Assembly (NCBI GenBank): GCA_038243515.1
Contig: JBBSRA010000007.1
Coordinates: 22,373 to 86,372, forward strand
From: Bacillales bacterium
GTDB taxonomy: Bacteria; Bacillota; Bacilli; Bacillales_A; Planococcaceae
Reading direction: 5' to 3'
Length of the DNA: 64,000 nucleotides
Shown: positions 41,740-60,278 of the stretch, one piece after another
Position numbering within the stretch: position 1 is the stretch's first letter
Layout: each line of letters opens with the position of its first letter
The notes under the pieces: model-generated
Told to the model about the DNA's origin: nothing
Databases searched by the model: none
What the model saw: only the letters and a program-made list of their open reading frames with translations
Position numbers and translations under genes: made by a program

Positions 41740-43005
41740 TTAAGTTAAGAACAAAGAAATTTGAGGGAATATGATGATGAGAATTAGAACAATAATAAAT
41801 ATCATGAAGAAAGGAACTACACCTTTTATAACTTTCTCCACTTTTTCACCGGTTATTCCACTGACAACGAATAAGTTGAGTCCAACTGGCGGTGTGATCA
41901 TACCCAATTCCATGTTGACTACCATAATAATTGCGAAATGGATAACATCAATTTCCAATGCAGAAATGATAGGAAGTAGAATTGGAAGTGTAATTAAGAT
42001 AATTGCTGTTGGCTCTAAGAACATTCCAAGGACGAAAAATAGTAAACTGACAATAATTAAGAATGTCCATTTATTAAATCCACTATCACTTACCCAAGCT
42101 GCAAAGTCTTGTGGAACTTGCTCGGTTGTTAAGAACATACCGAAAACCAAAGCGGCAGCAATAATTAGGAAAATCATTGACGTCGTGTTAATCGATTCTT
42201 TGGTAATTTCAACAAATTGAGACCAAGTCATTTCTCTGTAAACAAGAATAGAAATAATGATTGCATATAAAGCAGCTAAAAAAGAGGCTTCTGTCGGAGT
42301 TACAATTCCTGTATAAATGCTACCTAAAATTAGGATGGGCATTACAAGTCCCCAGGTAGCTCTCAGTGTAGGACGCCACCGATCTTTTAAAGGAACTTTC
42401 GGCAAGCCACCATAATTTTTTCTGTGCGCTACAATTACTGCATAGACAATTAAAGCGAGGCCGAGTAGAATTCCTGGTAAAATTCCAGCTGAAAATAATC
42501 GTCCAGTAGATTGTTCTGAAACGGATCCATAAAGAATTAGTGGAATTGAAGGGGGAATTAGGATACCTAATGTTCCGGCCGCAGCGACTAATCCCATAGA
42601 ATAACTTTTATCATATCCAGCTTTGACCATCATTGGAATCATAATGGCACCAATGGCTGCAGCAGTTGCAGGACTTGAACCTGAAATAGCTGCAAAAATC
42701 ATACAAGTGATAACGGTTACTACGGATAAACCGCCTTTTGTATGACCAACCCAAGATCGGATGCATTCAATCAAGTACTTTGATATACCACCTTTAGCCA
42801 TGATTAATCCGGCAAAGACGAATCCAGGAATCGCCATTAATGTTGTACTGTTAACTCCAGTAAACATTTTTTGTATGACAGTATTCAATGAGAAATCAAC
42901 CATGTAAAGTCCGACAATACTAGAAACTGCCAGGCTTATGGCAATTGGCACTCGCAAGAAAGCGAAGACAAAAAGTAAAACGATTACAATTATAGCTGCT
43001 TCCAT
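41740..43005 (-). CDS. dctM: TRAP transporter large permease
   Basis: LMAIPGF, AISGSSPATAAA, LGILIPPS, GIVTPTEA and ITPPVGLNL motifs. Confidence 0.93.
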   Translation of the reverse strand: MEAAIIVIVLLFVFAFLRVPIAISLAVSSIVGLYMVDFSLNTVIQKMFTGVNSTTLMAIPGFVFAGLIMAKGGISKYLIECIRSWVGHTKGGLSVVTVITCMIFAAISGSSPATAAAIGAIMIPMMVKAGYDKSYSMGLVAAAGTLGILIPPSIPLILYGSVSEQSTGRLFSAGILPGILLGLALIVYAVIVAHRKNYGGLPKVPLKDRWRPTLRATWGLVMPILILGSIYTGIVTPTEASFLAALYAIIISILVYREMTWSQFVEITKESINTTSMIFLIIAAALVFGMFLTTEQVPQDFAAWVSDSGFNKWTFLIIVSLLFFVLGMFLEPTAIILITLPILLPIISALEIDVIHFAIIMVVNMELGMITPPVGLNLFVVSGITGEKVEKVIKGVVPFFMIFIIVLILIIIFPQISLFLT

Positions 43006-43490
43006 TCTGCATCTCCTCCGCCCGTAACATTTTCTTTCTTAATAAAGTATCGATAAGCTTTTTCGCAGAAACGGATAAATAACAAAGTGCCTGCAATCGG
43101 CATGATTAAGTAATTAATCCATATCGGGAAGCCGACATCAATAGTTTTAATATCTTGGCTATATGCTGTTGTTACCATATCAAGGCCAGTCCAAAAGATG
43201 AAAATACTGAAAGCAGAGCCAATCAATAACGTAACTGCTTGAGAGAATTGCTGCATTTTAGGTCCAAACCTATCGTAAAGTACGTCTATCGCAATATGCT
43301 TATCTTCTTTCAAAGCTGATGAAAAGCCGATAAAAATGGCCCACACTAAAAGCATTGTATAAATTTCGGTAGCCCAACTTTGAGAACTTCCTAAGACATA
43401 ACGCATAAAAACGGAGTATAGACTAATAGCAATTCCAAATAAAAAGAAGATGATAGAGAAAGCGCTCTCAATACGATCCAGATATTTCAT
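42990..43490 (-). CDS. dctQ: TRAP transporter small permease
   Basis: Four TM helices; RYVLG..SWATE and HIAID motifs. Confidence 0.9.
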   Translation of the reverse strand: MKYLDRIESAFSIIFFLFGIAISLYSVFMRYVLGSSQSWATEIYTMLLVWAIFIGFSSALKEDKHIAIDVLYDRFGPKMQQFSQAVTLLIGSAFSIFIFWTGLDMVTTAYSQDIKTIDVGFPIWINYLIMPIAGTLLFIRFCEKAYRYFIKKENVTGGGDAEWKQL

Positions 43491-43517
43491 TTAAATCCTC
43501 CTCAATCAATATGTATT

Positions 43518-43806
43518 TTGGATACGAAAACAATTAGTCAAATCATAATACAAGTTATAACTAATAACAAGCAAAATTTAGAATAGAAAGAAAATTTAAC
43601 TGATATAACTTTAGTGCTATTCATTTCTTGATATACTTAGTTCTAAATAATTACTGAAAGATGCTAAAAAAGAAATTACTATAAAAGATAGAATATTTAA
43701 ATTTTTCTTTACATTCGTTTTTTTCTATGATAATTTTGTGGTAAGTTGTATCCAAAATTCAACGCAAGGACATCAACTTAATTTCTTTTGTTTATATCGT
43801 ATACAA
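43518..43806. promoter_or_regulatory. Three putative GntR/FadR operators in the dctQ-dctP intergenic region
   Basis: TTGGATACGA (43518-27), TTGTATCCAA (43746-55) and TCGTATACAA (43797-806), resembling TTGTATACAA-type FadR-subfamily sites. Confidence 0.55.
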
Positions 43807-43838
43807 AGGGTAGAGAGAAAGAGAGGAGCAGATAAAAT

Positions 43839-43852
43839 TGAAAGCCCTTACA
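43839..43852 (+). promoter_or_regulatory. Putative cre (CcpA) site upstream of dctP
   Basis: TGAAAGCCCTTACA has one mismatch to TGWAANCGNTNWCA. Confidence 0.6.
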
Positions 43853-43904
43853 AAAAAGATTTGAGTTTATCTTGAGATTTTAAAAAAATTAGGGGGTTTT
43901 TTAG

Positions 43905-44933
43905 ATGAAAAAACACATTTTAACCTTATCATTATTAATGTCTGCGGTTGTATTAGCTGCTTGTGGTGATGATGAAGCAGCCACTAAAGGAGAAAGTAGT
44001 GGTGACGACGTTCAAGAAATGACCATTAAATTTTCTCACGTCGTAGCGGAAAATACACCTAAGCATCAAGGTGCATTAGCTATGAAAGAATATATAGAAA
44101 AAGAATCTGACGGTGCAATTGAAGTTGAAATTTATCCTAATAGTTCACTGTTCGGAGATCAAGACGAATATCAGAACTTAGTTTCGAATAATGTTCAATT
44201 TATCGCGCCTGATTTATCAAAATTTGTCGGGAATAATCCGCAATTTAATGTGCCATCTCTTCCTTTTATGTTTGATAATGATGAAGAAGCAATTGCATTC
44301 TGGGACGGTGAAAAAGGCCAAGAGATTTTGGGTAGTTTAGAAGGTGATGGTGTACTTGGTTTATCTATGTGGCCAAATGGTGGTAAGCACGTTACCAATA
44401 ATGAACGACCAATTGATTCACCAGACGACTTTGAAGGCTTGAAATTCCGAACTCAAGGTGGTCAAGTGCTAGAAGCTATTTATGCCGCTTTAGGTGCGGG
44501 CTCTGAATCTATTCCTTTTGGAGAACTTTACACAGCACTTGACCAAGGAGTTGTAGAAGGTCAGGAAAATACGTTCAGCAACATTGAATCTAAGAAATTC
44601 GATGAAGTTCAAGATTATATGACTATTATGAACCACACACGTGTAGATTACGCTATTTTCACAAACACTGATTTTTGGGAAAGCATGAACGACGCGACAA
44701 AAGAAATCGTAGAAGCCGGAATTGACGAAGGAACAGAAGTGGCACGTGAAGAAGCAAAAAATCTAAATGAAAAAGCTCTTGAGTTAATTCGCGAAAGAGG
44801 ACAGGTCGAAATCATCGAGTTGACACCTGAACAAATCGAAGAGTTCCGTACAACTTTAGAACCTATTTATGATGAATTCGAAGATGAAATTGGTGCCGAT
44901 GTATATGAAGCGGCGCGTGAAGCTGCTGAATAA
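43905..44933 (+). CDS. dctP: TRAP substrate-binding lipoprotein
   Basis: Lipobox LAAC, KFSHVV, PSLPF, GLKFR and ALDQGVVEGQEN motifs. Confidence 0.93.
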   Translation: MKKHILTLSLLMSAVVLAACGDDEAATKGESSGDDVQEMTIKFSHVVAENTPKHQGALAMKEYIEKESDGAIEVEIYPNSSLFGDQDEYQNLVSNNVQFIAPDLSKFVGNNPQFNVPSLPFMFDNDEEAIAFWDGEKGQEILGSLEGDGVLGLSMWPNGGKHVTNNERPIDSPDDFEGLKFRTQGGQVLEAIYAALGAGSESIPFGELYTALDQGVVEGQENTFSNIESKKFDEVQDYMTIMNHTRVDYAIFTNTDFWESMNDATKEIVEAGIDEGTEVAREEAKNLNEKALELIRERGQVEIIELTPEQIEEFRTTLEPIYDEFEDEIGADVYEAAREAAE

Positions 44934-44986: not shown

Positions 44987-45065
44987 AGTTTAAACTTTGC
45001 TTTAAGAAAAGTGTTTTGTAAGAAAAAATTAACCAAACCAATACTTTACAGACAGGAGAATGGAT

Positions 45066-45449
45066 ATGAACAAAGAGAAATTTGAAAAAGGATTGGAAAT
45101 ACGTAAAAGTGTATTAGGCGCAGAATATGTAGATCAATCAATTCAAAATGCGACGGAGTTTAATATGCCCATGCAAGAATTGGTTACAGAGTACTGCTGG
45201 GGAGAAGTTTGGGCACGCCCAGGACTAACAAAAAAAACCCGGAGTATGCTTAATCTCGCCATGATTACAGCATTAAATCGACCGCACGAATTAAAACTGC
45301 ACGTTAGAGGAGCTATCAATAATGGTTTGACGAGAGAAGATATACAAGAAGTTTTTCTTCAAACTGCTATTTACTGTGGCGTGCCAGCAGCGATTGACAG
45401 TTTTAGGACAGCAAAAGAAGTGTTTGATGAAATAGACAAAGAACAGTAA
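45066..45449 (+). CDS. Carboxymuconolactone decarboxylase family protein (PcaC-like)
   Basis: GLEIRKSVLG, WGEVWARPGL, LKLHVRGA and QTAIYCGVP motifs. Confidence 0.88.
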   Translation: MNKEKFEKGLEIRKSVLGAEYVDQSIQNATEFNMPMQELVTEYCWGEVWARPGLTKKTRSMLNLAMITALNRPHELKLHVRGAINNGLTREDIQEVFLQTAIYCGVPAAIDSFRTAKEVFDEIDKEQ

Positions 45450-45471: not shown

Positions 45472-46395
45472 TTAAGTAAAGAGAATTCGAGATAAGAAAA
45501 TCACAATTGTTATAGACAATGCACTAAAAATAGTTGAAACAAAAACAGCTTGAGCGGCAAAAGCGGCTTCGTTTTCATATTCCTGTGCAATAATGGCGCT
45601 ATTAACAGAACTTGGGACGGCGGAAGCAATAAATAATGCTTGAGCTGTAATAACATCTACATGTAGAAATGGAATAATAATAAAAGCAGTAAGCGGACTG
45701 ATGATAAGCCTAACAGCGACACTAAGGTACACAGTAAACATATTTTTAGTGAAGTTCAATTGAACCACTTGAGCTCCCAACGTGAGTAACGCTACAGCAA
45801 TCAATGCATCTGCGATGTAGGAGCCCGGTATATAAATAAACTGCGGTAGTTCTAAGTTGAATGCATTTAGCAGTAAGCCGAAAAACATTGCATAAAGTAT
45901 CGGCATTTTAAAATAAGGAACCGTATCTTTGATTTTAGTTTTATTCAGTTTTTCTAAACTGATGATGCCATACGAGTACACCAACAAATTTTGAAAAGTA
46001 AGAACCAGTACTTGAACGCCCATCGCAACGGGGTCTTGTCGAAAGGCGAGATCATTTACAGAAATGCCGTAATTGCCCGAGTTGTAAAACAAAGAGCTGT
46101 GTGAAAATGCGATACGAAGCCCTTTGCTAAAACCAAGAAGTCTACTGATCACATTGGATACAAAATACAAAAATATAGATAAAAAAATAAAAAAAGCTAA
46201 TACTTTAAAAAACAAATCCCAAGCCAGATCAGTTTCGTAAAGACGAATAAAAATTAGTCCGGGAACTAAATAATAAATATTAATTTTTGCTAGCGTGTTT
46301 AAATCAAGGTGAAATTTGAAATGTAGAAATGCACCAATTCCGATTAGGATGAGTATGGGGACAATGATGTTAAGGAAAATATTGAAAATTTCCAT
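45472..46395 (-). CDS. AEC family (malate/malonate permease-like) transporter
   Basis: IVPILILI..G, NSGNYG, ALLTLG and PSSVNSAIIA motifs. AAGGAG SD before ATG 46395. Confidence 0.85.
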   Translation of the reverse strand: MEIFNIFLNIIVPILILIGIGAFLHFKFHLDLNTLAKINIYYLVPGLIFIRLYETDLAWDLFFKVLAFFIFLSIFLYFVSNVISRLLGFSKGLRIAFSHSSLFYNSGNYGISVNDLAFRQDPVAMGVQVLVLTFQNLLVYSYGIISLEKLNKTKIKDTVPYFKMPILYAMFFGLLLNAFNLELPQFIYIPGSYIADALIAVALLTLGAQVVQLNFTKNMFTVYLSVAVRLIISPLTAFIIIPFLHVDVITAQALFIASAVPSSVNSAIIAQEYENEAAFAAQAVFVSTIFSALSITIVIFLSRILFT

Positions 46396-46505
46396 GAGAT
46401 GTACTCCTTTCGTTTGTTCCACAAATAGAACTTTGTGCCGTTTCTGTACAATATACACTATTAAGAAAATTATACCAATCAATTTTGAAACTGAGGTGAA
46501 TCTAA

Positions 46506-47435
46506 ATGAAGCTACCTAAAAAAGTAAAGATAAATGAAGTTGTCTTAAGAGATGGACTACAACTAGAAGACAAAGTACTGACTTTAGATGAGAAAAAAAA
46601 GATATTTGATCAATTAGTAAAAGCTAATGTTCAGACGATAGAGTTTGGTTCATTTGTGCATCCTAAATTAGTGCCACAAATGACAAACAGTGGGGAACTA
46701 TTTGAATTGATATCGGAAAATCCGAATGATGTAAAGCTGATTGCGTTGATTCCCAATTTAAAAGGAGCAAAAAATGCACAAGAAAAAGGCGTAAAAAACA
46801 TAAATTTCGTCTTCTCAGCTAGTGATACACATAATAAGCAAAATGTTCAAAAAAGCACAGAAGATTCACTGAGTGAGCTGAAAGAAATTCTCAGTTATTG
46901 CAAAGAACATGACATGTGCTTGAGTGTATCGATTGCGACGACTTTTGGATGTCCTTTCGAAGGTGAAGTAAAAAAAGAACGGATTTACTGGATTCTTGAG
47001 CAATTAACGTCTTTAGATCTAGAAACAATTACGTTAGCGGATACTACGGGTATGGCAAATCCACAACAAGTTTACGACTTGATAACAGACCTAATAAACA
47101 AATTTCCACAACAATTATTCAATCTTCATTTTCATAATACAAGAGGAATGGGACTTGTAAACATGATGGCTGCAATGCAAGCTGGCGTCACAAGTTTTGA
47201 TGCTTCCTTAGGTGGACTTGGAGGTTGTCCATTTGCTCCTGGAGCAACTGGCAATATCTGCACAGAAGATGTTGTTCATATGCTTCATAGTATGGGAATT
47301 GAGACAGGTCTGTCATTAGACGAGTTGATAATCGCTTCTAAGACGCTTCAACAACTTGTCGGTCATGAAACACCGAGTTATGTTTTAAAAGCAGGTCCAT
47401 ATAACCGAAAATATTTGATACCTACAAAGAAATAG
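46506..47435 (+). CDS. HMG-CoA lyase family (DRE-TIM) acyl-CoA lyase
   Basis: LRDGLQ, FGCPFEG, LADTTG, HFHNT and GLGGCPFAPGATGN motifs. Confidence 0.9.
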   Translation: MKLPKKVKINEVVLRDGLQLEDKVLTLDEKKKIFDQLVKANVQTIEFGSFVHPKLVPQMTNSGELFELISENPNDVKLIALIPNLKGAKNAQEKGVKNINFVFSASDTHNKQNVQKSTEDSLSELKEILSYCKEHDMCLSVSIATTFGCPFEGEVKKERIYWILEQLTSLDLETITLADTTGMANPQQVYDLITDLINKFPQQLFNLHFHNTRGMGLVNMMAAMQAGVTSFDASLGGLGGCPFAPGATGNICTEDVVHMLHSMGIETGLSLDELIIASKTLQQLVGHETPSYVLKAGPYNRKYLIPTKK

Positions 47436-47520: not shown

Positions 47521-48315
47521 ATGTCTAAGTGGGAAACTTTGTTATTGAATAAACAATTCAGCAATGACAATGTCTATGTAATTGAACTGAATAGACCTGA
47601 AGCAATGAATTCGTTGAATACAAAAATGGCTGTCGAATTGATTGAATGTTTGACATCACTGGAGCAACAAAAAGATTTGCGTGCGTTAGTACTGACGGCT
47701 AAAGGAGAAAAAAGCTTTTGCGTAGGAGCGGATTTAAAAGAACGGAAAGGAATGACAAACGAACAATGGAAACAGCAACATGATATTTTCGAAGAGGCCT
47801 ATGAATTGTTGCGAAACTTTAAGTTGCCAGTGATTGCAGCAGTTAATGGATTTGCCTTAGGAGGAGGCATGGAGATGTTGCTAAGCTGTGACCTTCGCTA
47901 TGCTTCCGAACAAGCTAAAGTAGGATTGCCTGAAGTTAAATTAGGAATTATTCCAGGTGTAGGAGGAACTCAACTATTGCCGCGCGCCATTCCAGTCGGA
48001 TTAGCGAAAGAAATGCTTTTTAGAGGAAATCAAGTTGATGCGCAGAAAGCGTTGGAAGTTGGAATTCTGAATGGTGTTTTCACGAAAGAAGAATTGATGT
48101 CAAAAACAATAGAAATTGCCAAAGAAATTGCGCAGAATGCACCACTATCTTTGCAATCGATCAAGAAATCTATTCAAACCGGATTGCATACAGACATGAA
48201 TACGGCTCTTTCGATTGAACTTGATCAATACTACAAATGTGCTAATTCGGAAGATCGAATGGAAGGTATTTTAGCTTTTAATGAAAAACGAAAACCAAAT
48301 TGGCAAGGGAAATAA
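47521..48315 (+). CDS. Enoyl-CoA hydratase (crotonase), methylglutaconyl-CoA hydratase/YngF-like
   Basis: FCVGADLKER, NGFALGGGME, LPEVKLGIIPG.GGTQ and F.EKRKP motifs. Confidence 0.9.
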   Translation: MSKWETLLLNKQFSNDNVYVIELNRPEAMNSLNTKMAVELIECLTSLEQQKDLRALVLTAKGEKSFCVGADLKERKGMTNEQWKQQHDIFEEAYELLRNFKLPVIAAVNGFALGGGMEMLLSCDLRYASEQAKVGLPEVKLGIIPGVGGTQLLPRAIPVGLAKEMLFRGNQVDAQKALEVGILNGVFTKEELMSKTIEIAKEIAQNAPLSLQSIKKSIQTGLHTDMNTALSIELDQYYKCANSEDRMEGILAFNEKRKPNWQGK

Positions 48316-48354: not shown

Positions 48355-49695
48355 ATGGAATTGAGCAGGCAATTAGCAAACTATAGCTTAAATCTGCAAT
48401 ACGAGGATTTGCCTGAAGAAGTCGTGTCATTTACAAAGTTATGTATTCTCGATTATTTCGGATCAGCAATAGCTGGATCAGATAAAAAACCGGTTCAAAT
48501 AATTAGCAACTTAGTAAAAGAAATGGGTGGCTTTGAACAAGTAAAACTATTTACTGGAGGAAAATCAAGTGTATTAAATGCGACTTTAGTAAATGGATCG
48601 GCCAGTCACATAATGGAACTAGATGATATTCACAAAGGATCGATTATCCATGCAGCTACCGTTGTTATTCCAGCAGCATTAGCAGTTGCGGAATGGCGAC
48701 AATTGAGTGGGAAAGAACTGATCACCGCTGTAGTCGTAGGATACGAAGTCTGCTTTAGAATCGGCGAAGCAGTATCGCCTTCTCATTATTATTATTGGCA
48801 CAATACTGCTACGTGTGGGACATTCGGTGCCACGGCTGCTGCTGGAAAACTACTTGGTCTGACAGAAGATCAAGTAGTCGATGCTTTAGGAAATGCAGGA
48901 TCACAAGCCGCTGGACTATGGGAATTTATTGTTGACGGTGCCATGACAAAACAACTACACACGGCAAAAGCCGCAATGAACGGTACAATGGCTGCTTTAC
49001 TGGCGCAAAAAGACTTTACAGGACCGAAGAAAATTCTCGAAGGCGATCGTGGATTTTTTAATGCGATGAGTGAAGAACATGATGCTTCTAGAATAACGGA
49101 AAATCTTGGACAAGAATTTAAAATTTTGGAAAACTCTTTTAAAATTCATGCTTCTTGTCGGCATACACATCACGCCATCGATTTGCTGATCGATATTTTC
49201 AAAGAAGATCAACCTATACTAGAAGACATCGAATCGGTGGAAGTCGATTCCTATCAAGTTGCCCTTACTATCACGGATGACGTAGACCCTCAAACAGAAT
49301 ACGCAGCTAAATTCAGCCTCCAGTTCTGCTCAGCTTTAGCTTTGTTGAATGGTCGTGCAAGTCTGGAGGATTTCGGCGAAGAAAAGTTGTGGGATAAAGA
49401 CGTTCGAGCATTGATGGAGAAAGTAAATGTTCATGTGGATCCTTTAATTGATGGTAGCTATCCAAAACAATGGGGAGCAGCAGTCACTGTTTTGTTAAAG
49501 AATGGACAGAAAATTTATAAACAAACGGATTTTCCAAAAGGTGATCCTGAAAACGCGGTTACTACAGAAGAGTTGCTTGAAAAATTTATAGGAATGGCTA
49601 CATCAATGCCAAGCCAACAACGACAAGTTTTAGCAGTGAGTTTAATGGATTTAGAATCGATAGAAAATATTAGTGATCTTATGGCGACACTATAA
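48355..49695 (+). CDS. MmgE/PrpD family protein
   Basis: ELDDIH, IHAATV, WHNTATCG, KQLH, FKIHASCRHTH, AKFS and PKGDP motifs. Confidence 0.9.
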   Translation: MELSRQLANYSLNLQYEDLPEEVVSFTKLCILDYFGSAIAGSDKKPVQIISNLVKEMGGFEQVKLFTGGKSSVLNATLVNGSASHIMELDDIHKGSIIHAATVVIPAALAVAEWRQLSGKELITAVVVGYEVCFRIGEAVSPSHYYYWHNTATCGTFGATAAAGKLLGLTEDQVVDALGNAGSQAAGLWEFIVDGAMTKQLHTAKAAMNGTMAALLAQKDFTGPKKILEGDRGFFNAMSEEHDASRITENLGQEFKILENSFKIHASCRHTHHAIDLLIDIFKEDQPILEDIESVEVDSYQVALTITDDVDPQTEYAAKFSLQFCSALALLNGRASLEDFGEEKLWDKDVRALMEKVNVHVDPLIDGSYPKQWGAAVTVLLKNGQKIYKQTDFPKGDPENAVTTEELLEKFIGMATSMPSQQRQVLAVSLMDLESIENISDLMATL

Positions 49696-49759
49696 CTAGC
49701 AATAGTACGATTGACGAATGGAAAACGGAGAAAAGAATCCATGTAAAGAAGGCGTTTCT

Positions 49760-50284
49760 ATGGAACGTAATAGTGAACAATTAATAGGGGTAGTAAATTT
49801 GATCAATCAATTAAAAACCTTTAACTCATCTGAACTAAAACAAGCCACTTATTTATTATCGCTTTTGCAGGAGCCGCAAGACGATTCAATCGATAACGCT
49901 GTACCGATGCATTTTCTTGGAAGATTTTTAGGGATGAAACAACACAAAGACGGGACAACTGAAATGGCTTTAGGATTTCAGAATGAAAATACTTATGGTG
50001 TAGCACAAGGTGGGTCTATTTATACATTGGCTGATGTCGCAATTGGCTTTAGCATCTTGCAGAATTTAACAGAAGAAGAAAAAGTATTTACTTTAGAGCT
50101 GAAAGTGAATTTTATTGAAAAAGGACAAGGTTCTCGTTTGATCGCGACTCCTTGTATTTTGAGACAAGGCAGAACTACAGTAGTTTCTGAGTGCGCGATT
50201 CATGATGATTCGGGGAAATTAGTGGCCAAAGCGCTGGGTACTTTTTATATCAGTAGAACAAAGAAAAGAAAGGAAGGAGACTGA
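49760..50284 (+). CDS. PaaI/hotdog-fold acyl-CoA thioesterase with N-terminal extension
   Basis: NTYGVAQGG..TLADVA and TLELKVNF motifs. Confidence 0.85.
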   Translation: MERNSEQLIGVVNLINQLKTFNSSELKQATYLLSLLQEPQDDSIDNAVPMHFLGRFLGMKQHKDGTTEMALGFQNENTYGVAQGGSIYTLADVAIGFSILQNLTEEEKVFTLELKVNFIEKGQGSRLIATPCILRQGRTTVVSECAIHDDSGKLVAKALGTFYISRTKKRKEGD

Positions 50285-51129: not shown

Positions 51130-51138
51130 GGTTATTAT

Positions 51139-51687: not shown

Positions 51688-51724
51688 TCAATGAACAGTG
51701 AGGTACCCAAAAGGAGGTAGCAAT

Positions 51725-52675: not shown

Positions 52676-53341
52676 ATGGAAAATTTCAAATTAACAGAAC
52701 AAGATAGAGCCACTTTGCAGTATAAAGTAACAAATAAATTGAGAGAACTAATACTCAAAGGTGAGTTCAAAATGGGAGAACGCTTGATGCAAGAAGAGTG
52801 GGCTCAGAAATTAGGAGTTAGTCGAATGCCACTTAGAGAAGCATTGCGTCAACTAGAGGTTGAGGGCTTAGTTAAGATTGAACCTAGAAGAGGTGCAGTA
52901 GTTACTCCAATTTCCACTGAGGATATTGAGGAAATCTACCAATTGAGAGCTCTTCTGGAAGGACAGGCAGTTGTGAAGTCTCTTCCATATTTGGGGAATG
53001 AGGAAATACTAGAACTTGAAAATCTATATAACGCAATGATCAAGCTAAAAGCTGATGAAAACGATGTTGAGATTTTCATGAAACTAAATGCCGAATTTCA
53101 TCGAATTTTAAGAGAAAGTTGTCCATGGAGAAGAATTCAAGGATTCATCGAAACTTTATGGAAAGGGATTCCTCCTTACACACCGAGTCTCCTATCAAAT
53201 CACTTAGCAGATTCACATGAAGAGCATCGCTTAATGTTGGAATATGTAAAACAAAAAGACGAAGTTCAATTAAAAAGGATTACAGAAAAGCATATACTAA
53301 GAACCAAAGAAAACTTGATTGAGATGATGAACAAAGAATAA
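52676..53341 (+). CDS. GntR family regulator, FadR subfamily (FCD domain)
   Basis: LGVSRMPLREAL HTH, EIYQLR..LE, FH and EH motifs. Confidence 0.92.
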   Translation: MENFKLTEQDRATLQYKVTNKLRELILKGEFKMGERLMQEEWAQKLGVSRMPLREALRQLEVEGLVKIEPRRGAVVTPISTEDIEEIYQLRALLEGQAVVKSLPYLGNEEILELENLYNAMIKLKADENDVEIFMKLNAEFHRILRESCPWRRIQGFIETLWKGIPPYTPSLLSNHLADSHEEHRLMLEYVKQKDEVQLKRITEKHILRTKENLIEMMNKE

Positions 53342-53388: not shown

Positions 53389-54447
53389 ATGAAACAAATA
53401 GAGTTGGCGGTAATTGCAGGAGATGGCATTGGAAAAGAAGTCGTTCCTGAAGCATTGCGTGTTCTGGATGTGGTAGCAGAAATTCATGGCGGTTTGAAAT
53501 TCAATTCGACCCATCATGACTGGAGCTCAGAGTACTATGTCCAACATGGAGAAATGATGCCCAAAGACGGCTTAAATCAATTGATACAAAGTGATGCGGT
53601 GTTCCTGGGAGCTGTTGGAGATCCGTCATTAGTTGCCGACCATATTTCACTAGGTGGCTTATTGCTGAAAATCCGTAGAGAATTTGAGCAAGTTATCAAT
53701 ATTCGTCCAGCCAAACAGTTGAAAGGAATCGTATCTCCTCTAGGAAATCCGCAGAATTTCGACATCATGATTGTCCGCGAGAACAGCGAAGGTGAATATA
53801 GCAGTGTCGGAGGAAGAGTACACAGTGGAGAAGATGAAATCGTCATTCAAAATGCAGTTTTTACAAAAAAAGGTGTTTCACGTGTTATTAAATATGCTTT
53901 TGAGTTGGCTCAAAAACGGAGTGGTCATGTAACAAGTGCCACTAAATCAAATGGAATTGTCCATTCCATGCCTTTTTGGGACGAAGTCTTTAAAGAAGTC
54001 GCAATGAATTATGGAGACGTTCAAACTAATAGCGAACATATTGATGCGCTTTCTGCTTTTTTCATTACAAAGCCGCAGACCATGGATGTCGTAGTAGCTA
54101 GCAATTTATTTGGAGATATTTTGAGTGATATTGGAGCCGCCATAATGGGCAGCATAGGGATAGCGCCTGCTGGAAACATTAATCTAAACGGCAAATATCC
54201 ATCTATGTTTGAACCTGTACATGGTTCAGCACCGGATATTTTTGGAAAAGGAATTGCTAATCCAATTGGTCAGATTTGGACAGCTAAAATGATGCTTGAT
54301 CATTTAGGAGAGCATGAAATGGGTATATTATTGCTAAATGCCATTGAAGAATCTATGCAATCTGGTATCAAAACTGCAGATATTGGAGGTAACTCTTCAA
54401 CAAGTGAAGTAACCGATGAAATTATTGCTAAGCTTCGAAAAAAGTAA
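53389..54447 (+). CDS. Tartrate / D-malate dehydrogenase (decarboxylating), beta-decarboxylating dehydrogenase family
   Basis: GDGIGKEV, ATKSNG, HIDAL, SNLFGDILSD and EPVHGSAPDI motifs; TtuC/DmlA/YcsA-type. Confidence 0.88.
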   Translation: MKQIELAVIAGDGIGKEVVPEALRVLDVVAEIHGGLKFNSTHHDWSSEYYVQHGEMMPKDGLNQLIQSDAVFLGAVGDPSLVADHISLGGLLLKIRREFEQVINIRPAKQLKGIVSPLGNPQNFDIMIVRENSEGEYSSVGGRVHSGEDEIVIQNAVFTKKGVSRVIKYAFELAQKRSGHVTSATKSNGIVHSMPFWDEVFKEVAMNYGDVQTNSEHIDALSAFFITKPQTMDVVVASNLFGDILSDIGAAIMGSIGIAPAGNINLNGKYPSMFEPVHGSAPDIFGKGIANPIGQIWTAKMMLDHLGEHEMGILLLNAIEESMQSGIKTADIGGNSSTSEVTDEIIAKLRKK

Positions 54448-54555
54448 GAATTTCTTAGCAGCTATAACGAAAACAACTATCATCATAAAAAGAACTAAAT
54501 TTTCTGAAAATACATTTACAACTGTTGAATTATTTAGTACGATACGTAGTAAGTT

Positions 54556-54573
54556 GATATTGTATCCAATATC
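54556..54573. promoter_or_regulatory. Putative GntR operator upstream of the CitE-like gene
   Basis: Near-perfect palindrome GATATTGTATCCAATATC with the same TTGTATCCAA core as the site at 43746. Confidence 0.6.
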
Positions 54574-54594: not shown

Positions 54595-55449
54595 ATGAAT
54601 AAACAGCGTTCTTATTTATTTGTACCTGCAACTAGTCTTTCGTTAATAAAGAAGGCAGTCTTATCTGTGGCGGATATTGTTATTGTAGACTTAGAAGATG
54701 CGGTAGCCTTATCTGAAAAGCAGGCTGCAAGAGATGTTATGAAAGAAGCTTTGAAAGTGTATAAACAGGAACACAAAATCATTGTCCGCATCAATTCTTT
54801 GGAAACTTCTCTTTGGGAAGCGGATTTGGAAACAGCCATTAATAATGGAGCTGCAGGAATTATGCTTCCAAAAGCAGAAGATGAGCAAGGAATTCAAAGA
54901 GTATCTAATAAGATACGTGAAATTAGAGAGAGCAAAGATGAAGCGTTTGAATTGATCCCATTAATAGAAAGTGCTAAGGGCGTACAGTTCGCGTACGCAA
55001 TTGCCTCCGCAGATTCTTTAGTTTCGGCGTTGGCTTTCGGATCCATTGACTTTTCACTGGATATTGACTGCGAGCTAACTCCAGAAGGAATGGAATTGCT
55101 GTTTGCTCGCTCGCAGTTGGTTATTGCTTCGAAGGCGGCGGGTATTCGACCTCCAATTGATGCGGTTTATCCGAATTTAACAGATGAAGAAGGATTGAAA
55201 AATCAAACAGTTTTTGCAAATCAACTCGGCTTTAAGGCGAAACTGGTTATTCATCCGAAACAATTAGAAGTTGTCCATCGAGTGTTTTCGCCTTCAGATG
55301 AAGAAATCACAATGGCTAAAAAAATTATTGAGGCATTTGAACAAGCTGAAAAAGAAGGTATTGCTTCGATTAAAGTTGAAGGGCAATTTGTTGACTATCC
55401 TATCTATAAAAAAGCTAAAAAACTTTACAGTAGAAATAGTGAAAAGTAG
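54595..55449 (+). CDS. CitE/HpcH-family acyl-CoA lyase (citryl/citramalyl-CoA lyase-like)
   Basis: RSYLFVP, VDLEDAV, VRIN, MLPK, LIESAKG, FGSIDF and LVIHPKQ motifs. Confidence 0.9.
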   Translation: MNKQRSYLFVPATSLSLIKKAVLSVADIVIVDLEDAVALSEKQAARDVMKEALKVYKQEHKIIVRINSLETSLWEADLETAINNGAAGIMLPKAEDEQGIQRVSNKIREIRESKDEAFELIPLIESAKGVQFAYAIASADSLVSALAFGSIDFSLDIDCELTPEGMELLFARSQLVIASKAAGIRPPIDAVYPNLTDEEGLKNQTVFANQLGFKAKLVIHPKQLEVVHRVFSPSDEEITMAKKIIEAFEQAEKEGIASIKVEGQFVDYPIYKKAKKLYSRNSEK

Positions 55450-55695
55450 TGTTGAAAAGCAGTTTAACCACTGTTATGTAGATAACTTCTGACAGACGAA
55501 ACCAACAACTTATGCTGTACTAAAATACATAAAACCATATTGCAAGAAGACGCTGCAACGATGATTATAAAATTAGTAATTTGAGATGCTAGTAAAATTT
55601 TCTTGAAGTTCTGAATGACAATCTTAAGTAACTATTATTTTGTACGGTTACATTGAACGAATTGTAACGAAGTGCGAATAAAAGGAGGGATAACA

Positions 55696-56388
55696 ATGGC
55701 CGATAAAATGGAATTCAATCAGGAAATTGCGACAGAGTACGACAAAGGAGTAAGGCGGACGTTGCCGACATATGATCCGATGTTACGCTTGTCACAAACA
55801 TTTCTTCACTACGCGCTTAAAGAGCAAGCCGAAGTACTTGTAGTCGGTTGCGGTGGAGGAAATGAATTAAAAGCTTTTGGAGTACCAAATCCGGGATGGT
55901 ATTTTACAGCAGTAGATCCTGCAAAAGCCATGCTTGAAGCGGCTAAAGTAAAAGCAGAACAAGTAGGGATTGAAAAGCGTATCGAGTGGATAAACGGTAC
56001 TGTAATGGATGTACCAATGGAAAAGCACTTTGATGGTGCAACTTGTATTCTGGTTTTGCATTTTATCCCTGAAATAGAAGAAAAAAAGGCGTTACTAATG
56101 AAAATAAGAAGTCATCTAAATTCAGGAGCTCCTTTCGTGTTGGTTAGTAAATTTGGAGATCCAGATGATTCAGAGTTTAAAGAGCTCGTAGCTTTGTGGA
56201 AGAATTATTGGTTGGATATGACCAACTTATCTGCTCAAAAAGTAGAAGAGTTAATGAAAGGCACTTTAACGGATTCATCGATTTCTGAAGCTGACATTCG
56301 GCAACTGCTAACAGACGCTGGATTTCATCGAATTGCCAACTTCTTAAAAACTAATCAGTTTGGGGGCTGGATTTGTTACGCAGATTAA
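55696..56388 (+). CDS. Class I SAM-dependent methyltransferase
   Basis: VLVVGCGGG, AVDP..AML and FDGATCILVLHF motifs. AAAGGAGG SD. Confidence 0.88.
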   Translation: MADKMEFNQEIATEYDKGVRRTLPTYDPMLRLSQTFLHYALKEQAEVLVVGCGGGNELKAFGVPNPGWYFTAVDPAKAMLEAAKVKAEQVGIEKRIEWINGTVMDVPMEKHFDGATCILVLHFIPEIEEKKALLMKIRSHLNSGAPFVLVSKFGDPDDSEFKELVALWKNYWLDMTNLSAQKVEELMKGTLTDSSISEADIRQLLTDAGFHRIANFLKTNQFGGWICYAD

Positions 56389-56456: not shown

Positions 56457-57878
56457 GTGAAAAGCAATTCAGCGGAAAATGGGAGAACGCTCCTATTCAT
56501 CGGAATAGCTATTTTAGGTTTTCTTGCTGTTTATTTTTTATTGCCAAATGACTTTTCTTACGCGGCTAAAGTAATGACCAGTATTATTACTCTTGGTATT
56601 ATTTTATGGTCATTAGAAACGATACCTATTGGTTTGACCGCATTGATTATCTTATTGTTGATGTTGTTATTCGACGTCGCAGATACATCAGTTATCTTTA
56701 GTGGGTTTGCTTCACCAGCCACTTATTTAATCGTTGGTGGAATGATGCTTGCGACGGCAGTTAACGAAACTGCTTTAATTAAACGAATGAGCTATACGAT
56801 TTTAAAAAGGTGGGGTGGTCGCTCAGCGGGATTGCTTGGTAGCATTATTATTATCCAGCAGATCCAAGCCTTTTTTATTCCTTCGACTGCAGTGCGGACT
56901 GCATTAATTTTACCAGTTTCAACAATGATTATTGATACAACTCAGGCAGAACCTGGAGGCAACTTAAGGAAAATGATTATGCTGGGTGTCGCTTTTGGCG
57001 GTGTCATCAGTGGGACTTCTGTTATGACAGCGGCAATCGGTAATATTTTGACAGTGGAGTTGCTCAATCGTTTAGCAGGTATTAACATTACATATTTTCA
57101 GTGGTTTTACTATACGTTTCCTATTTGGTTACTATTAATCCCGGCTATATGGTTTATGCTACTGAAAGTCTTTCCTTTACCAGAAGAGCAGAAATATTTT
57201 CCAGCAATCAAAGATGAAATGACAAGGAAGTTAGAAGAATTAGGTCCAGTTAACGCACAAGAAATCCGCTGTTTAGCAATTTTGTTAACCATTGTTATTT
57301 TATGGTTGACTGAGCCTCTTCATGGTTTGCATCCTAGCATTCCTGCTCTTGCAGGCGTAGTGTTGATGACTTTTCCTATTATTGGTGTTGCTTCGTGGGA
57401 GCCTGTAGTTCGGATCAACTACAATACGGTATTACTGGTCAGTATTACGTTGTCAATGGGCTATACGTTTGTGGATTCCGGCGCTTCGACGACAATTAGT
57501 CAGTATTTAAGTGTTGATTGGTTTATGCAACTTATACAAAATCCGTTTCCTTCAATAGTGATTGTTATCATTTTGGCTCAGATTTTTCATAAAATGATTT
57601 CAAATGTTGCGACTGCAGTTGTCGTGCTAGTGCCGATTGTTATAAGCGTTGCTCAAAATGCCGGAGTTGATCCATTGGTTATGGCGTTTACTACTGGATT
57701 GACTTGTCTTTTCGGATTTATCTTAATTGTTGAGTCCATGCCAAACTTGATTGCTCATAGCACAGGAATAGTTTCACAAAAAGATTTTTTAAAGCCTGGT
57801 TTATACGCAACTGTAATTTCGGTGAGTGCTACGATTTTTGTTGCGGCCACTTGGTGGAATTGGATTGGATTGATTTAA
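56457..57878 (+). CDS. DASS/SLC13 di-/tricarboxylate permease
   Basis: FSGFASP, FIPSTAVR, TAAIGN, MISNVATA and SMPNLIA motifs. GTG start after GGGAGG. Confidence 0.88.
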   Translation: MKSNSAENGRTLLFIGIAILGFLAVYFLLPNDFSYAAKVMTSIITLGIILWSLETIPIGLTALIILLLMLLFDVADTSVIFSGFASPATYLIVGGMMLATAVNETALIKRMSYTILKRWGGRSAGLLGSIIIIQQIQAFFIPSTAVRTALILPVSTMIIDTTQAEPGGNLRKMIMLGVAFGGVISGTSVMTAAIGNILTVELLNRLAGINITYFQWFYYTFPIWLLLIPAIWFMLLKVFPLPEEQKYFPAIKDEMTRKLEELGPVNAQEIRCLAILLTIVILWLTEPLHGLHPSIPALAGVVLMTFPIIGVASWEPVVRINYNTVLLVSITLSMGYTFVDSGASTTISQYLSVDWFMQLIQNPFPSIVIVIILAQIFHKMISNVATAVVVLVPIVISVAQNAGVDPLVMAFTTGLTCLFGFILIVESMPNLIAHSTGIVSQKDFLKPGLYATVISVSATIFVAATWWNWIGLI

Positions 57879-57906
57879 CAAACTAATTTTAGAGGAGGAA
57901 AATGAT

Positions 57907-59073
57907 ATGTTGCCATTGGAAGGAATAACCGTTGTTTCTTTAGAACAAGCTGTTGCAGCACCATTTGCAACTAGACAATTAGCCGATTTGGGAGCGCGGG
58001 TCATCAAAGTAGAAAGACCAGGAGTAGGAGACTTCGCCAGAAACTACGATAAAACAGTAAAGGGAATGGCAAGTCATTTTGTATGGATCAATCGTTCGAA
58101 AGAGTCGCTAGCACTAGATCTCAAGAAAGAAGAAGCCAAAGAAGTGTTGCATAAACTGTTAAAAGACGCGGATGTATTTCTTCATAACCTAGCTCCTGGT
58201 GCCGTCGATCGACTTGGATTTAGCGCGCAAGAACTAAAAAAAAACTACCCGCAATTAATTATTTGTTCTATTTCTGGTTACGGTACTTTCGGACCTTATA
58301 CAAATAAAAAAGCGTATGATTTACTCATACAATGTGAAGCAGGGTTGGTGTCAGTTACAGGAACGGAAGACACACCATCTAAAGCAGGAATTTCAATTGC
58401 AGACATTGCAGCAGGGATGTATGCATACACTGGCATATTAACTGCGATTATTTCACGCTATAAAACAGGGAAAGGCGCGATTATTGAAGTATCAATGCTT
58501 GAGGCCTTGGCAGAATGGATGGGTTATCCTCTTTATTACTCAGCTTACGGAGACAATGAACCGCCACGGACAGGTGCCAGCCATTCGACGATTTATCCTT
58601 ATGGTCCGTTTAAAGCGGGTGATGAGAAAATGGTATTCATGGGAATTCAAAACGAGCGAGAATGGGTTGAATTTTGTGGAACTGTTTTGAATAATCCTGA
58701 ATTGGCTTCGGATTCACTGTTCAATAGCAACTCCGAGCGAGTTGCTAATAAAGAAGCATTAAAAGAAATTATTGAAACTGTTTTTCAGACAATGAACTCT
58801 ACTCAAGTAATTGAAAAACTTGAAGAATCGCGAATTGCGAATGCACGTTTAAACACGATGAACGAATTAGTCGAACACCCGCAATTGGCAGCACGCAATC
58901 GTTGGAGAGAAGTGGATTCGCCGGTTGGAAAACTAAAGGCGCTCATTCCACCTGTTACGTCGGATGAAGTGGATACGGTTATGAATCCGATTCCAGCTGT
59001 CGGAGAACATACAGATGCTATTTTAGTAGAGTTAGGTTTTTCGAAAGAACAGATAAGCAAATTGACTACTTAA
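57907..59073 (+). CDS. Family III (CaiB/BaiF) CoA transferase
   Basis: LEQAVAAPFATRQLADLGARVIKVERPGVGDFAR, NRSKES, SISGYG, AYDLLIQ and SIADIAAG motifs; Ict/SUGCT-like. Confidence 0.92.
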   Translation: MLPLEGITVVSLEQAVAAPFATRQLADLGARVIKVERPGVGDFARNYDKTVKGMASHFVWINRSKESLALDLKKEEAKEVLHKLLKDADVFLHNLAPGAVDRLGFSAQELKKNYPQLIICSISGYGTFGPYTNKKAYDLLIQCEAGLVSVTGTEDTPSKAGISIADIAAGMYAYTGILTAIISRYKTGKGAIIEVSMLEALAEWMGYPLYYSAYGDNEPPRTGASHSTIYPYGPFKAGDEKMVFMGIQNEREWVEFCGTVLNNPELASDSLFNSNSERVANKEALKEIIETVFQTMNSTQVIEKLEESRIANARLNTMNELVEHPQLAARNRWREVDSPVGKLKALIPPVTSDEVDTVMNPIPAVGEHTDAILVELGFSKEQISKLTT

Positions 59074-59102
59074 AAAATTGTATTTGAAGGGGGAAATTTA
59101 TA

Positions 59103-60278
59103 ATGCCGACATTAACACAAACAGAAAGAGAGCAATTACGTCAAAAAGTCCGAGAACTATGTTCAGAATTCCCGAATTCGTATTGGAGAAAATTAGATTT
59201 AGAACGTGAGTATCCTTACGAGTTTGTAGATGCGCTAACAAAAAGTGGATATCTTTCAGCATTAATTCCTGAGAAATATGGCGGTAAAGGCTATGGTATG
59301 ACAGAAGCTACGATTATTTTAGAAGAAATTAATCGTTCTGGTGGCCACGCTGCAGGTTGTCATGCTCAAATGTATACGATGGGTGCATTATTAAAACACG
59401 GTAGTGAAGAACAAAAACAGCAGTATTTGCCTGGTATTGCAAATGGATCAATAAGGTTTCAGGCCTTTTCTGTAACAGAAGACAAAGCAGGCTCTAATAC
59501 TACTGCTATCGAAACGTTTGCTGAAAAAACAGCAAACGGTTATGTCGTTAATGGTCATAAAAATTGGACTAGTCGTTTACTGCAATCAGATTTAGTCATG
59601 TTACTTGCCCGTACAACACCAATTGAAAATGTAGGAGAAAAGCGCGCTGAAGGGCTTAGTTTATTTTTAGTTGATCTTCGAATCATTCGCGAACAACAAC
59701 CTGAATCTCTAGAAGTGGAACCGGTTCGTGCCATGTTCAACTATGCAACAAACCAAGTATGGTATAAAAACATGGAAATTCCAGCAGAATGTTTGATTGG
59801 TGAAGAAGGTAAAGGGTTTCGATATGTACTAGACGGCATGAATGCAGAACGGACCTTATTGGCGGCAGAAGCGATAGGAGATGGATACTTTTTTATCGAT
59901 AAAGCGACTAGTTACGCGAATGAACGAGAAGTCTTTAACCGGAAAATTGGTGAAAACCAAGGCATTCAATTTCCGATTGCACGAGCTTACGCAGCAATTA
60001 AAGCTGCCGACTTAATGCGTTATGAAGCAGCAAGAAGATTTGATAATAATGAAAAATTCGGCGAACAAGCCAATTTGGCAAAATTCTTGTCCAGTGAAGC
60101 GAGTTGGCAAGCAGCGAACGTCTGCCTAGATACATTCGGTGGTTATGGATTTGTCGACGAGTATGACGTAGAGCGGAAATTTAGAGAAACGCGAATGTAT
60201 CAAGTGGCACCAGTCAGCAATAATATGATTTTAGCTTATTTAGGACAAAATGTATTAAAGATGCCGCGCTCTTACTAA
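59103..60278 (+). CDS. Acyl-CoA dehydrogenase
   Basis: IPEKYGG, CHAQMY, SVTE, NGHKNWTS, LDGMNAER, NQGIQFP and FGGYGF...ERKFRE motifs. Confidence 0.93.
   Translation: MPTLTQTEREQLRQKVRELCSEFPNSYWRKLDLEREYPYEFVDALTKSGYLSALIPEKYGGKGYGMTEATIILEEINRSGGHAAGCHAQMYTMGALLKHGSEEQKQQYLPGIANGSIRFQAFSVTEDKAGSNTTAIETFAEKTANGYVVNGHKNWTSRLLQSDLVMLLARTTPIENVGEKRAEGLSLFLVDLRIIREQQPESLEVEPVRAMFNYATNQVWYKNMEIPAECLIGEEGKGFRYVLDGMNAERTLLAAEAIGDGYFFIDKATSYANEREVFNRKIGENQGIQFPIARAYAAIKAADLMRYEAARRFDNNEKFGEQANLAKFLSSEASWQAANVCLDTFGGYGFVDEYDVERKFRETRMYQVAPVSNNMILAYLGQNVLKMPRSY

Follow-up and report, generated by a model that had tools for sequence, protein, structure and literature searches.

We analyzed a 64,000-nt stretch of a Planococcus genome, from here on the window, in which a group of 19 genes at positions 41740-60278 (the 'island', ~18.5 kb) probably works as a single regulated unit for the catabolism of C5-dicarboxylic acids with branched chains, and would be the equivalent in Bacilli of the cluster known from Pseudomonas and Cupriavidus. 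Gene identities were established by open reading frame (ORF) calling and by profile searches against Pfam and NCBIfam. The gene families that an initial annotation of this DNA had listed were all found, in the order and within the limits that it had given. The dctQ, dctM and AEC permease genes lie on the minus strand and the other 16 on the plus strand (the strand of every feature below unless stated), separated by short gaps that do not exceed 52 nt across the block from the crotonase to the tartrate dehydrogenase gene.

In the pathway that we propose, the acids would be imported by the TRAP transporter DctPQM, and possibly also by the DASS and AEC carriers. The family III CoA-transferase (CoAT), orthologue of Ict, would activate (R)-methylsuccinate, itaconate and (S)-citramalate with CoA taken from succinyl-CoA, and an Msi-like MmgE/PrpD protein would interconvert (S)- and (R)-methylsuccinate as free acids. 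The acyl-CoA dehydrogenase (ACAD), orthologue of Mcd, would oxidize methylsuccinyl-C4-CoA to mesaconyl-C4-CoA. With Ich missing, a crotonase would hydrate mesaconyl-C4-CoA and perhaps itaconyl-CoA; its expected product is (R)-citramalyl-CoA, because its facial selectivity is opposite to that of the MaoC enzymes, and the adjacent enzyme of the HMG-CoA (hydroxymethylglutaryl-CoA) lyase family (HMGL) would split this product into acetyl-CoA and pyruvate. A two-subunit hydro-lyase would also convert mesaconate to (S)-citramalate, to be activated with CoA and split by a CitE-type (S)-citramalyl-CoA lyase. A GntR/FCD repressor at TTGTATCCAA sites, together with a cre-like site, would control expression. 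By sequence comparison, the CoAT and the ACAD are orthologous to the characterized Ict and Mcd, while the PrpD, crotonase/HMGL and hydro-lyase/CitE steps are assigned by family membership and catalytic residues. We infer the substrates of all steps, the stereochemistry of the hydration and cleavage, the mesaconase role of the hydro-lyase and the pairing of regulator and operator.

Relationship to the Pseudomonas locus and spread in Bacilli

The initial annotation had pointed out that the P. aeruginosa locus PA0878-PA0886 unites Ict, the CitE-type lyase Ccl, an acyl-CoA dehydrogenase, an MmgE/PrpD protein and DctPQM, and that all five are present here. The itaconate-methylsuccinate degradation cluster of Pseudomonas and Cupriavidus is the subject of de Witt 2023 (PMC9875883) and Gonner 2025 (PMC12290011), and reportedly of Sasikaran 2014. 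Our reference was locus L016 (NZ_CP131792.1), found by tblastn of the window PrpD against plasmid records, with the gene order PA0878-0886 followed by acs, presumably that of the PAO1 chromosome. The record is filed as an 847-kb P. aeruginosa plasmid, and could represent part of a chromosome or a megaplasmid that derives from one; the match from C. metallidurans (H18) stems from a record without annotation.

Direct comparison with this locus gave identities of 37 to 58%. The CoAT (57907-59073) is 58% identical to PA0882 (Ict) over its full length, with 475 bits, the next match in its own genome reaching 37%. The ACAD (59103-60278) gave 55% and 449 bits against PA0879 (Mcd), with own-genome paralogues at ≤35%. 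For the MmgE/PrpD protein (48355-49695) we obtained 42.5% identity and 331 bits to PA0881 (Msi), and for the CitE-type acyl-CoA lyase (54596-55449), the sole CitE of its genome, 37% identity to PA0883 (Ccl). Regarding the transporter, the solute-binding protein DctP (43905-44933; Pfam DctP, 312 bits), of the C4/C5-dicarboxylate clade, is 42% identical to PA0884, and the large permease subunit DctM (41740-43005, minus strand; Pfam DctM, 412 bits) 44% identical to PA0886; the small subunit DctQ (42990-43490, minus strand) matched Pfam DctQ with 113 bits. In the whole assembly of 2.9 Mb (92.9% complete), the island copies are by far the best, and the single close, matches to each compared PA protein.

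Relatives of solved structure are far weaker for the CoAT (human SUGCT, 225 bits), the ACAD (≤170 bits) and PrpD (B. subtilis 'IRG1', 166 bits). For CitE, the nearest ones are a PA0883-type lyase, with 138 bits, and the human protein CLYBL, with 127 bits, and the structures 9dtl/9ht3, which are PA0884 itself, are within the top three structure matches of the window DctP, with 251 bits. Across the other Bacilli loci described below, the ACADs are 52-70% identical to PA0879 and the CoATs 55-67% identical to PA0882. Ict, Mcd, Msi and Ccl of Pseudomonas and Cupriavidus were characterized experimentally in work published from 2023 to 2025, and enable growth with itaconate, both enantiomers of methylsuccinate, mesaconate or (S)-citramalate (PMC12290011, PMC9875883). 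The comparison thus supports the earlier suggestion of an expanded Gram-positive version for itaconate, methylsuccinate, mesaconate or citramalate, with Ich missing and the substrates putative.

The island shares with the Pseudomonas/Cupriavidus cluster the grouping of CoAT, ACAD, MmgE/PrpD, CitE-type lyase and TRAP DctPQM, and also an enzyme of the class I fumarase type for the entry of mesaconate, which Pseudomonas encodes elsewhere and the window inside the island. It differs in that it contains neither the MaoC-type Ich nor the VOC/Rdo lactonase, and has the crotonase and HMGL pair instead. Searches of the whole assembly returned no homologue of Ich (PA0878) at E<1e-5 and none of the VOC lactonase (PA0880); the MaoC protein of Siminovitchia gave one marginal match, outside the island, with E=0.001. 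Moreover, the regulator belongs to the GntR/FCD family, unlike the LysR-type ItcR of Proteobacteria, PrpD is encoded beside the hydro-lyase and not beside Mcd, and about seven genes are additional: those for the tartrate/D-malate dehydrogenase (TDH), a HIBADH-like dehydrogenase, a protein of the carboxymuconolactone-decarboxylase family (CMD), the thioesterase, the methyltransferase, and the AEC and DASS carriers.

Two other known systems resemble the island in part. A comparison with Yersinia RipABC had been proposed alongside that with PA0879, PA0881, PA0882 and PA0883; the PA proteins were matched as described. CitE stays under the NCBIfam RipC_Ccl cut-off (174 vs 375). RipABC also ends on a CitE-type lyase, yet it comprises a family I CoA-transferase (RipA) and a MaoC-type hydratase (RipB), with no Mcd or Msi. 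In view of the CitE score, and as a family I CoA-transferase is not present, we rejected the Yersinia type. Mammalian itaconate catabolism (succinyl-CoA ligase or SUGCT, AUH and CLYBL) likewise combines a crotonase-family hydratase with a CitE-like citramalyl-CoA lyase, the human proteins giving 225 (SUGCT), 175 (AUH) and 127 bits (CLYBL) against those of the window, but dedicates no acyl-CoA dehydrogenase, PrpD-family enzyme or HMGL-type lyase to this task.

The whole island recurs in seven Planococcus/Planomicrobium species, at 60-98% protein identity, and rearranged versions are found in at least 10 other genera of Bacilli, including Halobacillus, Robertmurraya and Siminovitchia. Given this recurrence across species and genera, the clustering is not due to chance. 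Around 21 of 400 sampled Bacilli species (~5%), from about a dozen families, have a PrpD orthologue with ≥49% identity, as do three of the 11 sampled congeners, so the distribution is patchy and that of an accessory element. To compare the layouts, we retrieved 18 additional loci and mapped all island proteins onto each of them.

The regulator (52676-53341; Pfam GntR and FCD) has an orthologue accompanying the cluster in almost all genera, and is a candidate for binding the operator-like 10-mer TTGTATCCAA, which fits the imperfect palindrome TTGnATnCAA. Exact copies occur three times in the island (43746-43755, 46154-46163 and 54560-54569) and seven times in the rest of the genome. The first lies in the divergent control region between dctQ and dctP (43491-43904), where it overlies a promoter-like -35 element of the minus strand. 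The same region contains a copy with one mismatch (43518-43527) and a cre-like palindrome (43839-43852) placed directly after the promoter-like -10 element of dctP. The copy 5' of CitE is located between a promoter-like site (54515-54543) and the ribosome-binding site. Neither motif is enriched in the window (8 found vs 7.1 expected for the 10-mer with one mismatch allowed, 6 vs 6.2 for the cre pattern), and hence the argument for the two motifs is that their positions are kept from genus to genus. The 10-mer of the spacer and the cre-like site keep the same relative place in L001-L009, L012 and L017; TTGTATCCAA stands at equivalent places in all seven Planococcus/Planomicrobium loci, in Halobacillus and Robertmurraya within the dctP spacer, and 5' of CitE in L001-L007 and in the Siminovitchia loci (L010/L011). 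These positions suggest that transporter and CitE promoters are coupled, in four genera, through the predicted operator and the cre-like site. The third copy, inside the AEC gene, is kept at the nucleotide level in Halobacillus, where the protein is only 67% identical, and may mark a regulatory site within the gene that serves the divergent HMGL operon. A scan for terminators inside the island gave nothing informative.

The crotonase and HMGL pair

The crotonase-family enoyl-CoA hydratase (47521-48315; Pfam ECH_1, 244 bits) has both catalytic glutamates, E118 and E138. Its similarity to human AUH does not exceed that to generic short-chain crotonases, and the model nearest to it is the Bacillus YngF-type PRK07657. 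The HMGL protein (46506-47435) passes the HMG-CoA lyase subfamily model NF004283 with 317 bits (cut-off 246) and presents the R15-D16, HxH and GCP-loop motifs. Among solved structures it is most closely related to HMG-CoA lyases (PDB 6nds, 271 bits), B. subtilis YngG matches with 238 bits, and a search for homologues returned only automatically annotated Bacillales proteins, of which that of Planococcus faecalis (94%) is the closest with a species name. It shares the Pfam family and the catalytic motifs with the (S)-HMG-CoA lyases PA2011 and YngG, and presumably with the (R)-citramalyl-CoA lyase of Chloroflexus aurantiacus, a member of the HMGL family that Friedmann et al. reportedly described in 2007. 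The Chloroflexus enzyme sets a precedent for cleavage of (R)-citramalyl-CoA in this family, opposite to the CitE-type lyases. A separate HMGL paralogue (42%) is encoded on contig C4 of the genome, and further crotonase paralogues elsewhere, so the pair in the island seems to be dedicated. No carboxylase genes were found in the island with Pfam and NCBIfam, so HMGL does not lie in the leucine-catabolic context of methylcrotonyl-CoA carboxylase and isovaleryl-CoA dehydrogenase.

The loci fall into several layouts. Crotonase and HMGL are found in the window, L001-L009, L012, L017-L019, L033 and L034, of which L018, from a congener, is a compact PrpD-ACAD-crotonase-HMGL unit. A MaoC gene is present instead in L010/L011, L023, L024 and L027, and the short MaoC protein matches the Pfam family MC_hydratase (mesaconyl-CoA hydratase) with 80 bits. 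L031 has both types of hydratase, and L020-L022 and L030 show a core-only layout, GntR-CitE-PrpD-(thioesterase)-FumAB, with no hydratase. Among the 12 non-Planococcus Bacilli loci with an Mcd-type ACAD, five carry MaoC, six crotonase plus HMGL, one carries both and none carries neither. Throughout the compared Bacilli loci, crotonase and HMGL are always adjacent, never apart and never without an ACAD. In Siminovitchia the order is CitE-CoAT-MaoC-ACAD-PrpD-GntR, that is, the canonical five genes plus the regulator. These loci resemble the island in CoAT (64-67%), ACAD (56%), PrpD (60-62%), GntR (67%) and CitE (38-40%) and in the operator mentioned above, and differ from it in having the mesaconyl-CoA-hydratase-like MaoC gene and in being devoid of crotonase, HMGL, hydro-lyase, TDH and TRAP genes. 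The five-gene cluster of L010 is flanked at its 5' side by a 2-oxoacid:ferredoxin oxidoreductase pair (1989-4614) and at its 3' side by two Zn-alcohol dehydrogenases, a metallo-beta-lactamase-fold protein and an aldehyde dehydrogenase (12134-17042).

MaoC-type hydratases and crotonases hydrate a 2-enoyl-CoA on opposite faces. Applying the priority rules to mesaconyl-C4-CoA, a MaoC-type enzyme gives (S)-citramalyl-CoA, as is known for Ich, and a crotonase that binds the substrate alike would yield (R)-citramalyl-CoA; for the crotonase-type methylglutaconyl-CoA hydratase, this analysis arrives at (S)-HMG-CoA, the correct product. Regarding the lyases, (S)-citramalyl-CoA and (R)-HMG-CoA are the substrates of the CitE-type PA0883 and Rv2498c, and (S)-HMG-CoA is that of the HMGL-type PA2011 (PMC6689899). 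Since the lyase families follow the same stereochemical split, the pairings of MaoC with CitE and of crotonase with HMGL are the expected ones. There is also a precedent for the family, as the crotonase AUH is held in the literature to serve mammalian itaconate catabolism. On these grounds, the crotonase would be a mesaconyl-C4-CoA (possibly itaconyl-CoA) hydratase that replaces the MaoC-type Ich, and HMGL a putative (R)-citramalyl-CoA lyase. We give the (R)-citramalyl-CoA branch as a whole a chance that is close to even, though slightly short of it.

PrpD, the hydro-lyase and competing readings

The seven active-site residues of Msi are all kept in the window PrpD (H85, E88, H99, Y145, H149, K199 and K263, aligned to H88, E91, H102, Y148, H152, K202 and K266 of PA0881), among them the His/Tyr two-base pair, a mark of the epimerase-type family members only. 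The survey of Gonner et al. 2025, in which Msi was accepted at HMM scores >550, found the enzyme almost only in Pseudomonadota, with six Bacillota, all of them Sulfobacillia (PMC12290011). This agrees with the remark in the initial annotation that no such pathway has been described in Planococcaceae, as do our searches of the open-access literature, where we found no description of a Bacilli version and no experimental report on growth or enzymes. In the part of the survey's Supplementary Data 4 that the analysis covered, orthologues of the window PrpD scored 443-461 bits, near the top among the matches listed there. They come from the same contigs as loci that we retrieved and have identities of 75-87% (L001, L002, L003, L004, L005 and L007) or 60-66% (L010, L011, L012 and L019); the taxa are Planomicrobium stackebrandtii, Planococcus soli, sp. 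4-30, sp. ISL-110, CPCC 101016, CPCC 101110, Robertmurraya kyonggiensis, Siminovitchia terrae and S. fordii. As these scores are below 550, the Bacilli went uncounted.

PrpD and Mcd are adjacent in L009-L012, L018 and L019, and 9.4 kb apart in the window. The most conserved feature of the cluster is the adjacency PrpD-(thioesterase)-FumA-FumB, so the role of the Bacilli PrpD may be tied to the hydro-lyase rather than to Mcd, by feeding a free-acid route through racemization or by isomerizing or epimerizing another 2-substituted succinate. Whether PrpD is a plain methylsuccinate isomerase we regard as evenly balanced. A second, divergent MmgE/PrpD paralogue, 33-34% identical to the window PrpD, was observed in L008 (5370-6716), L009 (751-2073), L012 and L019; in Robertmurraya it adjoins a dehydrogenase of the Ldh_2 family.

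The alpha and beta subunits of the class-I-type Fe-S hydro-lyase (50284-51129 and 51139-51687) pass the fumarase-type models NF004885 (408 bits vs a cut-off of 276) and NF005310 (282 vs 238), and stay under the L-tartrate dehydratase cut-offs (184 vs 365; 89 vs 264), so that the model scores do not support an L-tartrate dehydratase TtdAB. The class II fumarase FumC is encoded elsewhere in the genome, on contig C45, for which reason we rejected a housekeeping fumarase and regard the enzyme as accessory. Class I fumarases are known mesaconases, and supply Ict and Ccl with (S)-citramalate in Burkholderia as well as in engineered P. putida (PMC4682846, PMC9875883). Given the model scores, the location of FumC and this precedent, the most economical reading is that the hydro-lyase acts as a mesaconase, with the (S)-citramalate formed from mesaconate passing as (S)-citramalyl-CoA to CitE, which we propose as the candidate (S)-citramalyl-CoA lyase (Ccl).

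Together, these results allow a more far-reaching version, for which we consider the chances to be somewhat unfavorable: many Bacilli would run an inverted CoA branch, from Mcd through the crotonase and (R)-citramalyl-CoA to HMGL, beside the (S)/CitE branch, consuming both enantiomeric series, and PrpD would be a new free-acid isomerase or epimerase, acting for example from itaconate to mesaconate or on 3-methylmalate or tartrate.

Several observations weigh against a single C5-dicarboxylate unit. Crotonase and HMGL are closest to the leucine-catabolic YngG/YngF-type enzymes and could act on the C6 analogues 3-methylglutaconyl-CoA and HMG-CoA. The isomerization of itaconyl-CoA by the crotonase is in doubt, which makes itaconate a less secure substrate than methylsuccinate or mesaconate. 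The score of CitE under the RipC_Ccl cut-off and those of the PrpD orthologues under the Msi cut-off, in the entries mentioned, point in the same direction. In genomes G012, G041 and G080, a PrpD-FumAB-CitE core exists without any Ict or Mcd orthologue in the genome, so this PrpD subfamily may act otherwise than, or beyond, the racemization of methylsuccinate. Lastly, five to seven island genes have no step in the proposed flow.

One could argue that the island is composite, with a CoA-ester module (CoAT, ACAD, crotonase and HMGL) beside a free-acid module for C4 hydroxy-dicarboxylates, and with only the regulator and the transporters in common. The second module would consist of TDH, the tartronate-semialdehyde-reductase-like enzyme, the hydro-lyase, PrpD as an epimerase of tartrate or 3-methylmalate and CMD as a decarboxylase, and would serve tartrate or D-malate. 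TDH (53389-54447) is a bona fide member of the decarboxylating tartrate/D-malate dehydrogenase family by equivalog models (NF006048, 623 bits vs 501; TIGR02089, 570 vs 470), and is kept in the clusters of Halobacillus, Robertmurraya, L021 and L030. The HIBADH/tartronate-semialdehyde-reductase-like beta-hydroxyacid dehydrogenase (51698-52624; Pfam NAD_binding_2/11) has 2-hydroxy-3-oxopropionate reductase as its best NCBIfam match, and its best matches are all under their cut-offs. The three genomes without Ict and Mcd also fit a composite island, since their PrpD-FumAB-CitE core comes with GntR and, in varying combination, TDH, DASS and the HIBADH-like gene, and so do the sub-threshold Msi scores in the survey data that the analysis covered. 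But the hydro-lyase passes the fumarase-type and fails the L-tartrate dehydratase models, CitE belongs to the conserved core yet has no part in tartrate or malate breakdown, one operator is common to the transporter and CitE promoters, and no tartrate epimerase gene is known for comparison. We therefore consider a composite island unlikely.

Within a single C5-dicarboxylate unit, D-malate, tartrate or 3-methylmalate may be handled by a side module made up of TDH, the HIBADH-like enzyme and CMD, and these three, the thioesterase and the methyltransferase may provide side entries for related hydroxy-dicarboxylates. Citramalate is a tertiary alcohol, so it is not oxidizable by a tartrate/D-malate dehydrogenase. 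A second TDH paralogue (51% identical to that of the island) is encoded outside the window, on contig C13 (13541-17321), beside another TRAP DctM/DctP set, possibly as a separate locus for the uptake and oxidation of D-malate or tartrate. The PcaC-like CMD protein (45060-45449) passes the PcaC equivalog cut-off marginally (TIGR02425, 161 bits vs 155.7). We found no PcaH match and no PcaD above cut-off in the window genome, and with no PcaHG or PcaD we rejected a true PcaC of the protocatechuate pathway. CMD is conserved in the Planococcus, Halobacillus and L019 clusters, and unusually so in the latter two (85-89%, vs 62-75% for neighboring genes).

A different division of labor would make the CoA-dependent enzymes a parallel add-on, with a free-acid route in which PrpD racemizes methylsuccinate, the housekeeping succinate dehydrogenase (SDH) oxidizes one enantiomer to mesaconate and the hydro-lyase makes (S)-citramalate, which is then activated with CoA and cleaved by CitE. 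Classical enzymology reportedly has SDH accept one methylsuccinate enantiomer; a literature check returned nothing usable on this oxidation. The adjacency of PrpD, thioesterase and hydro-lyase genes, present also in genomes without Mcd, would be accounted for, but there is no SDH paralogue in or near the island and no dedicated citramalate-activating enzyme in the Mcd-less clusters, and we consider this route quite improbable. Still more so is a C6 branch, in which 3-methylglutarate, 3-methylglutaconate or HMG would be activated by a SUGCT-like CoAT, oxidized by the ACAD, hydrated by the crotonase as a methylglutaconyl-CoA-hydratase-like enzyme and cleaved by HMGL as a true HMG-CoA lyase to acetoacetate and acetyl-CoA: the HMG-CoA lyase model and solved relatives of HMGL, the YngF-type model nearest the crotonase, and human succinate-hydroxymethylglutarate CoA-transferase (SUGCT) as the best solved relative of the CoAT all suit it, but the CoAT and the ACAD match Ict and Mcd (475 and 449 bits) far better than SUGCT (225 bits) or any glutaryl-type ACAD, the island contains no acetoacetate-activating enzyme, sister clusters have the mesaconyl-CoA-hydratase-like MaoC in place of crotonase and HMGL, and for leucine catabolism a further HMGL and further crotonases are already encoded in the genome.

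Remaining genes, borders and implications

The hotdog-fold thioesterase (49718-50284; Pfam 4HBT, TIGR00369; PaaI-like) shares one base with the gene of the hydro-lyase alpha subunit, at position 50284, and recurs between PrpD and FumA in L009, L017, L019, L020 and L022. Its relatives in the PDB are all uncharacterized thioesterases, and since it has no similarity to the Siminovitchia MaoC or to PA0878, we rejected it as a hidden MaoC-type hydratase. The SAM-dependent methyltransferase (55672-56388; Pfam Methyltransf_12/25/11) is confined, among the compared clusters, to the Planococcus/Planomicrobium versions. The remaining carriers are a di/tricarboxylate symporter of the DASS family (56457-57878; TIGR00785, 204 bits vs a cut-off of 199) and the AEC permease (Pfam Mem_trans; 45472-46394, minus strand). 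Two gene starts were revised: for AEC, where the ORF call extends to 46482, an ATG at 46394 with an AAAGGAG ribosome-binding site is most likely over the TTG at 46482, and for CitE, with an ORF call from 54580, the most likely start is the ATG at 54596, which has a GGAGGA site upstream.

At the left edge, a perfect hairpin with an 18-bp stem and flanking A- and T-runs (41671-41711) makes a strong terminator, predicted to be bidirectional, between dctM and the upstream terD-like gene, and what precedes it is a ter/yce operon. At the right edge, a 624-nt gap contains a promoter-like site (11/12) followed by a T-box leader (60585-60810; RF00230, 113 bits). Downstream of the leader, a class V aminotransferase gene (BhcA-like, under cut-off) overlaps that of a 528-aa SerA-type D-3-phosphoglycerate dehydrogenase with an ACT domain. 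The region 60535-63649 is probably a tRNA-sensing serine biosynthesis operon, and we rejected the aminotransferase and the 528-aa gene as members of the island, as they belong to a SerA operon with its own T-box control.

Among fungal, immune and gut metabolites, itaconate and methylsuccinate are abundant ones. To our knowledge, the way in which bacteria break them down has been established for Proteobacteria and Mycobacterium only, besides the mammalian route. The pathway type is known and has its experimental basis in Proteobacteria, while the Bacilli version, its control by GntR, the replacement by crotonase and HMGL, and the embedded hydro-lyase and TDH appear to be new in the literature that we searched. 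A related, rebuilt pathway would thus be present in ~5% of the sampled Bacilli species, left out of the 2025 survey by a score cut-off, and the PrpD subfamily that it contains is flagged as one whose real reaction may differ from methylsuccinate isomerization. The island also offers a testable case of non-orthologous replacement under a stereochemical rule, with MaoC going with the CitE-type and crotonase with the HMGL-type lyase. Finally, the (R)-citramalyl-CoA route, the GntR-type sensor and the Gram-positive TRAP binding protein are possible parts for the bioconversion of C5-dicarboxylates.

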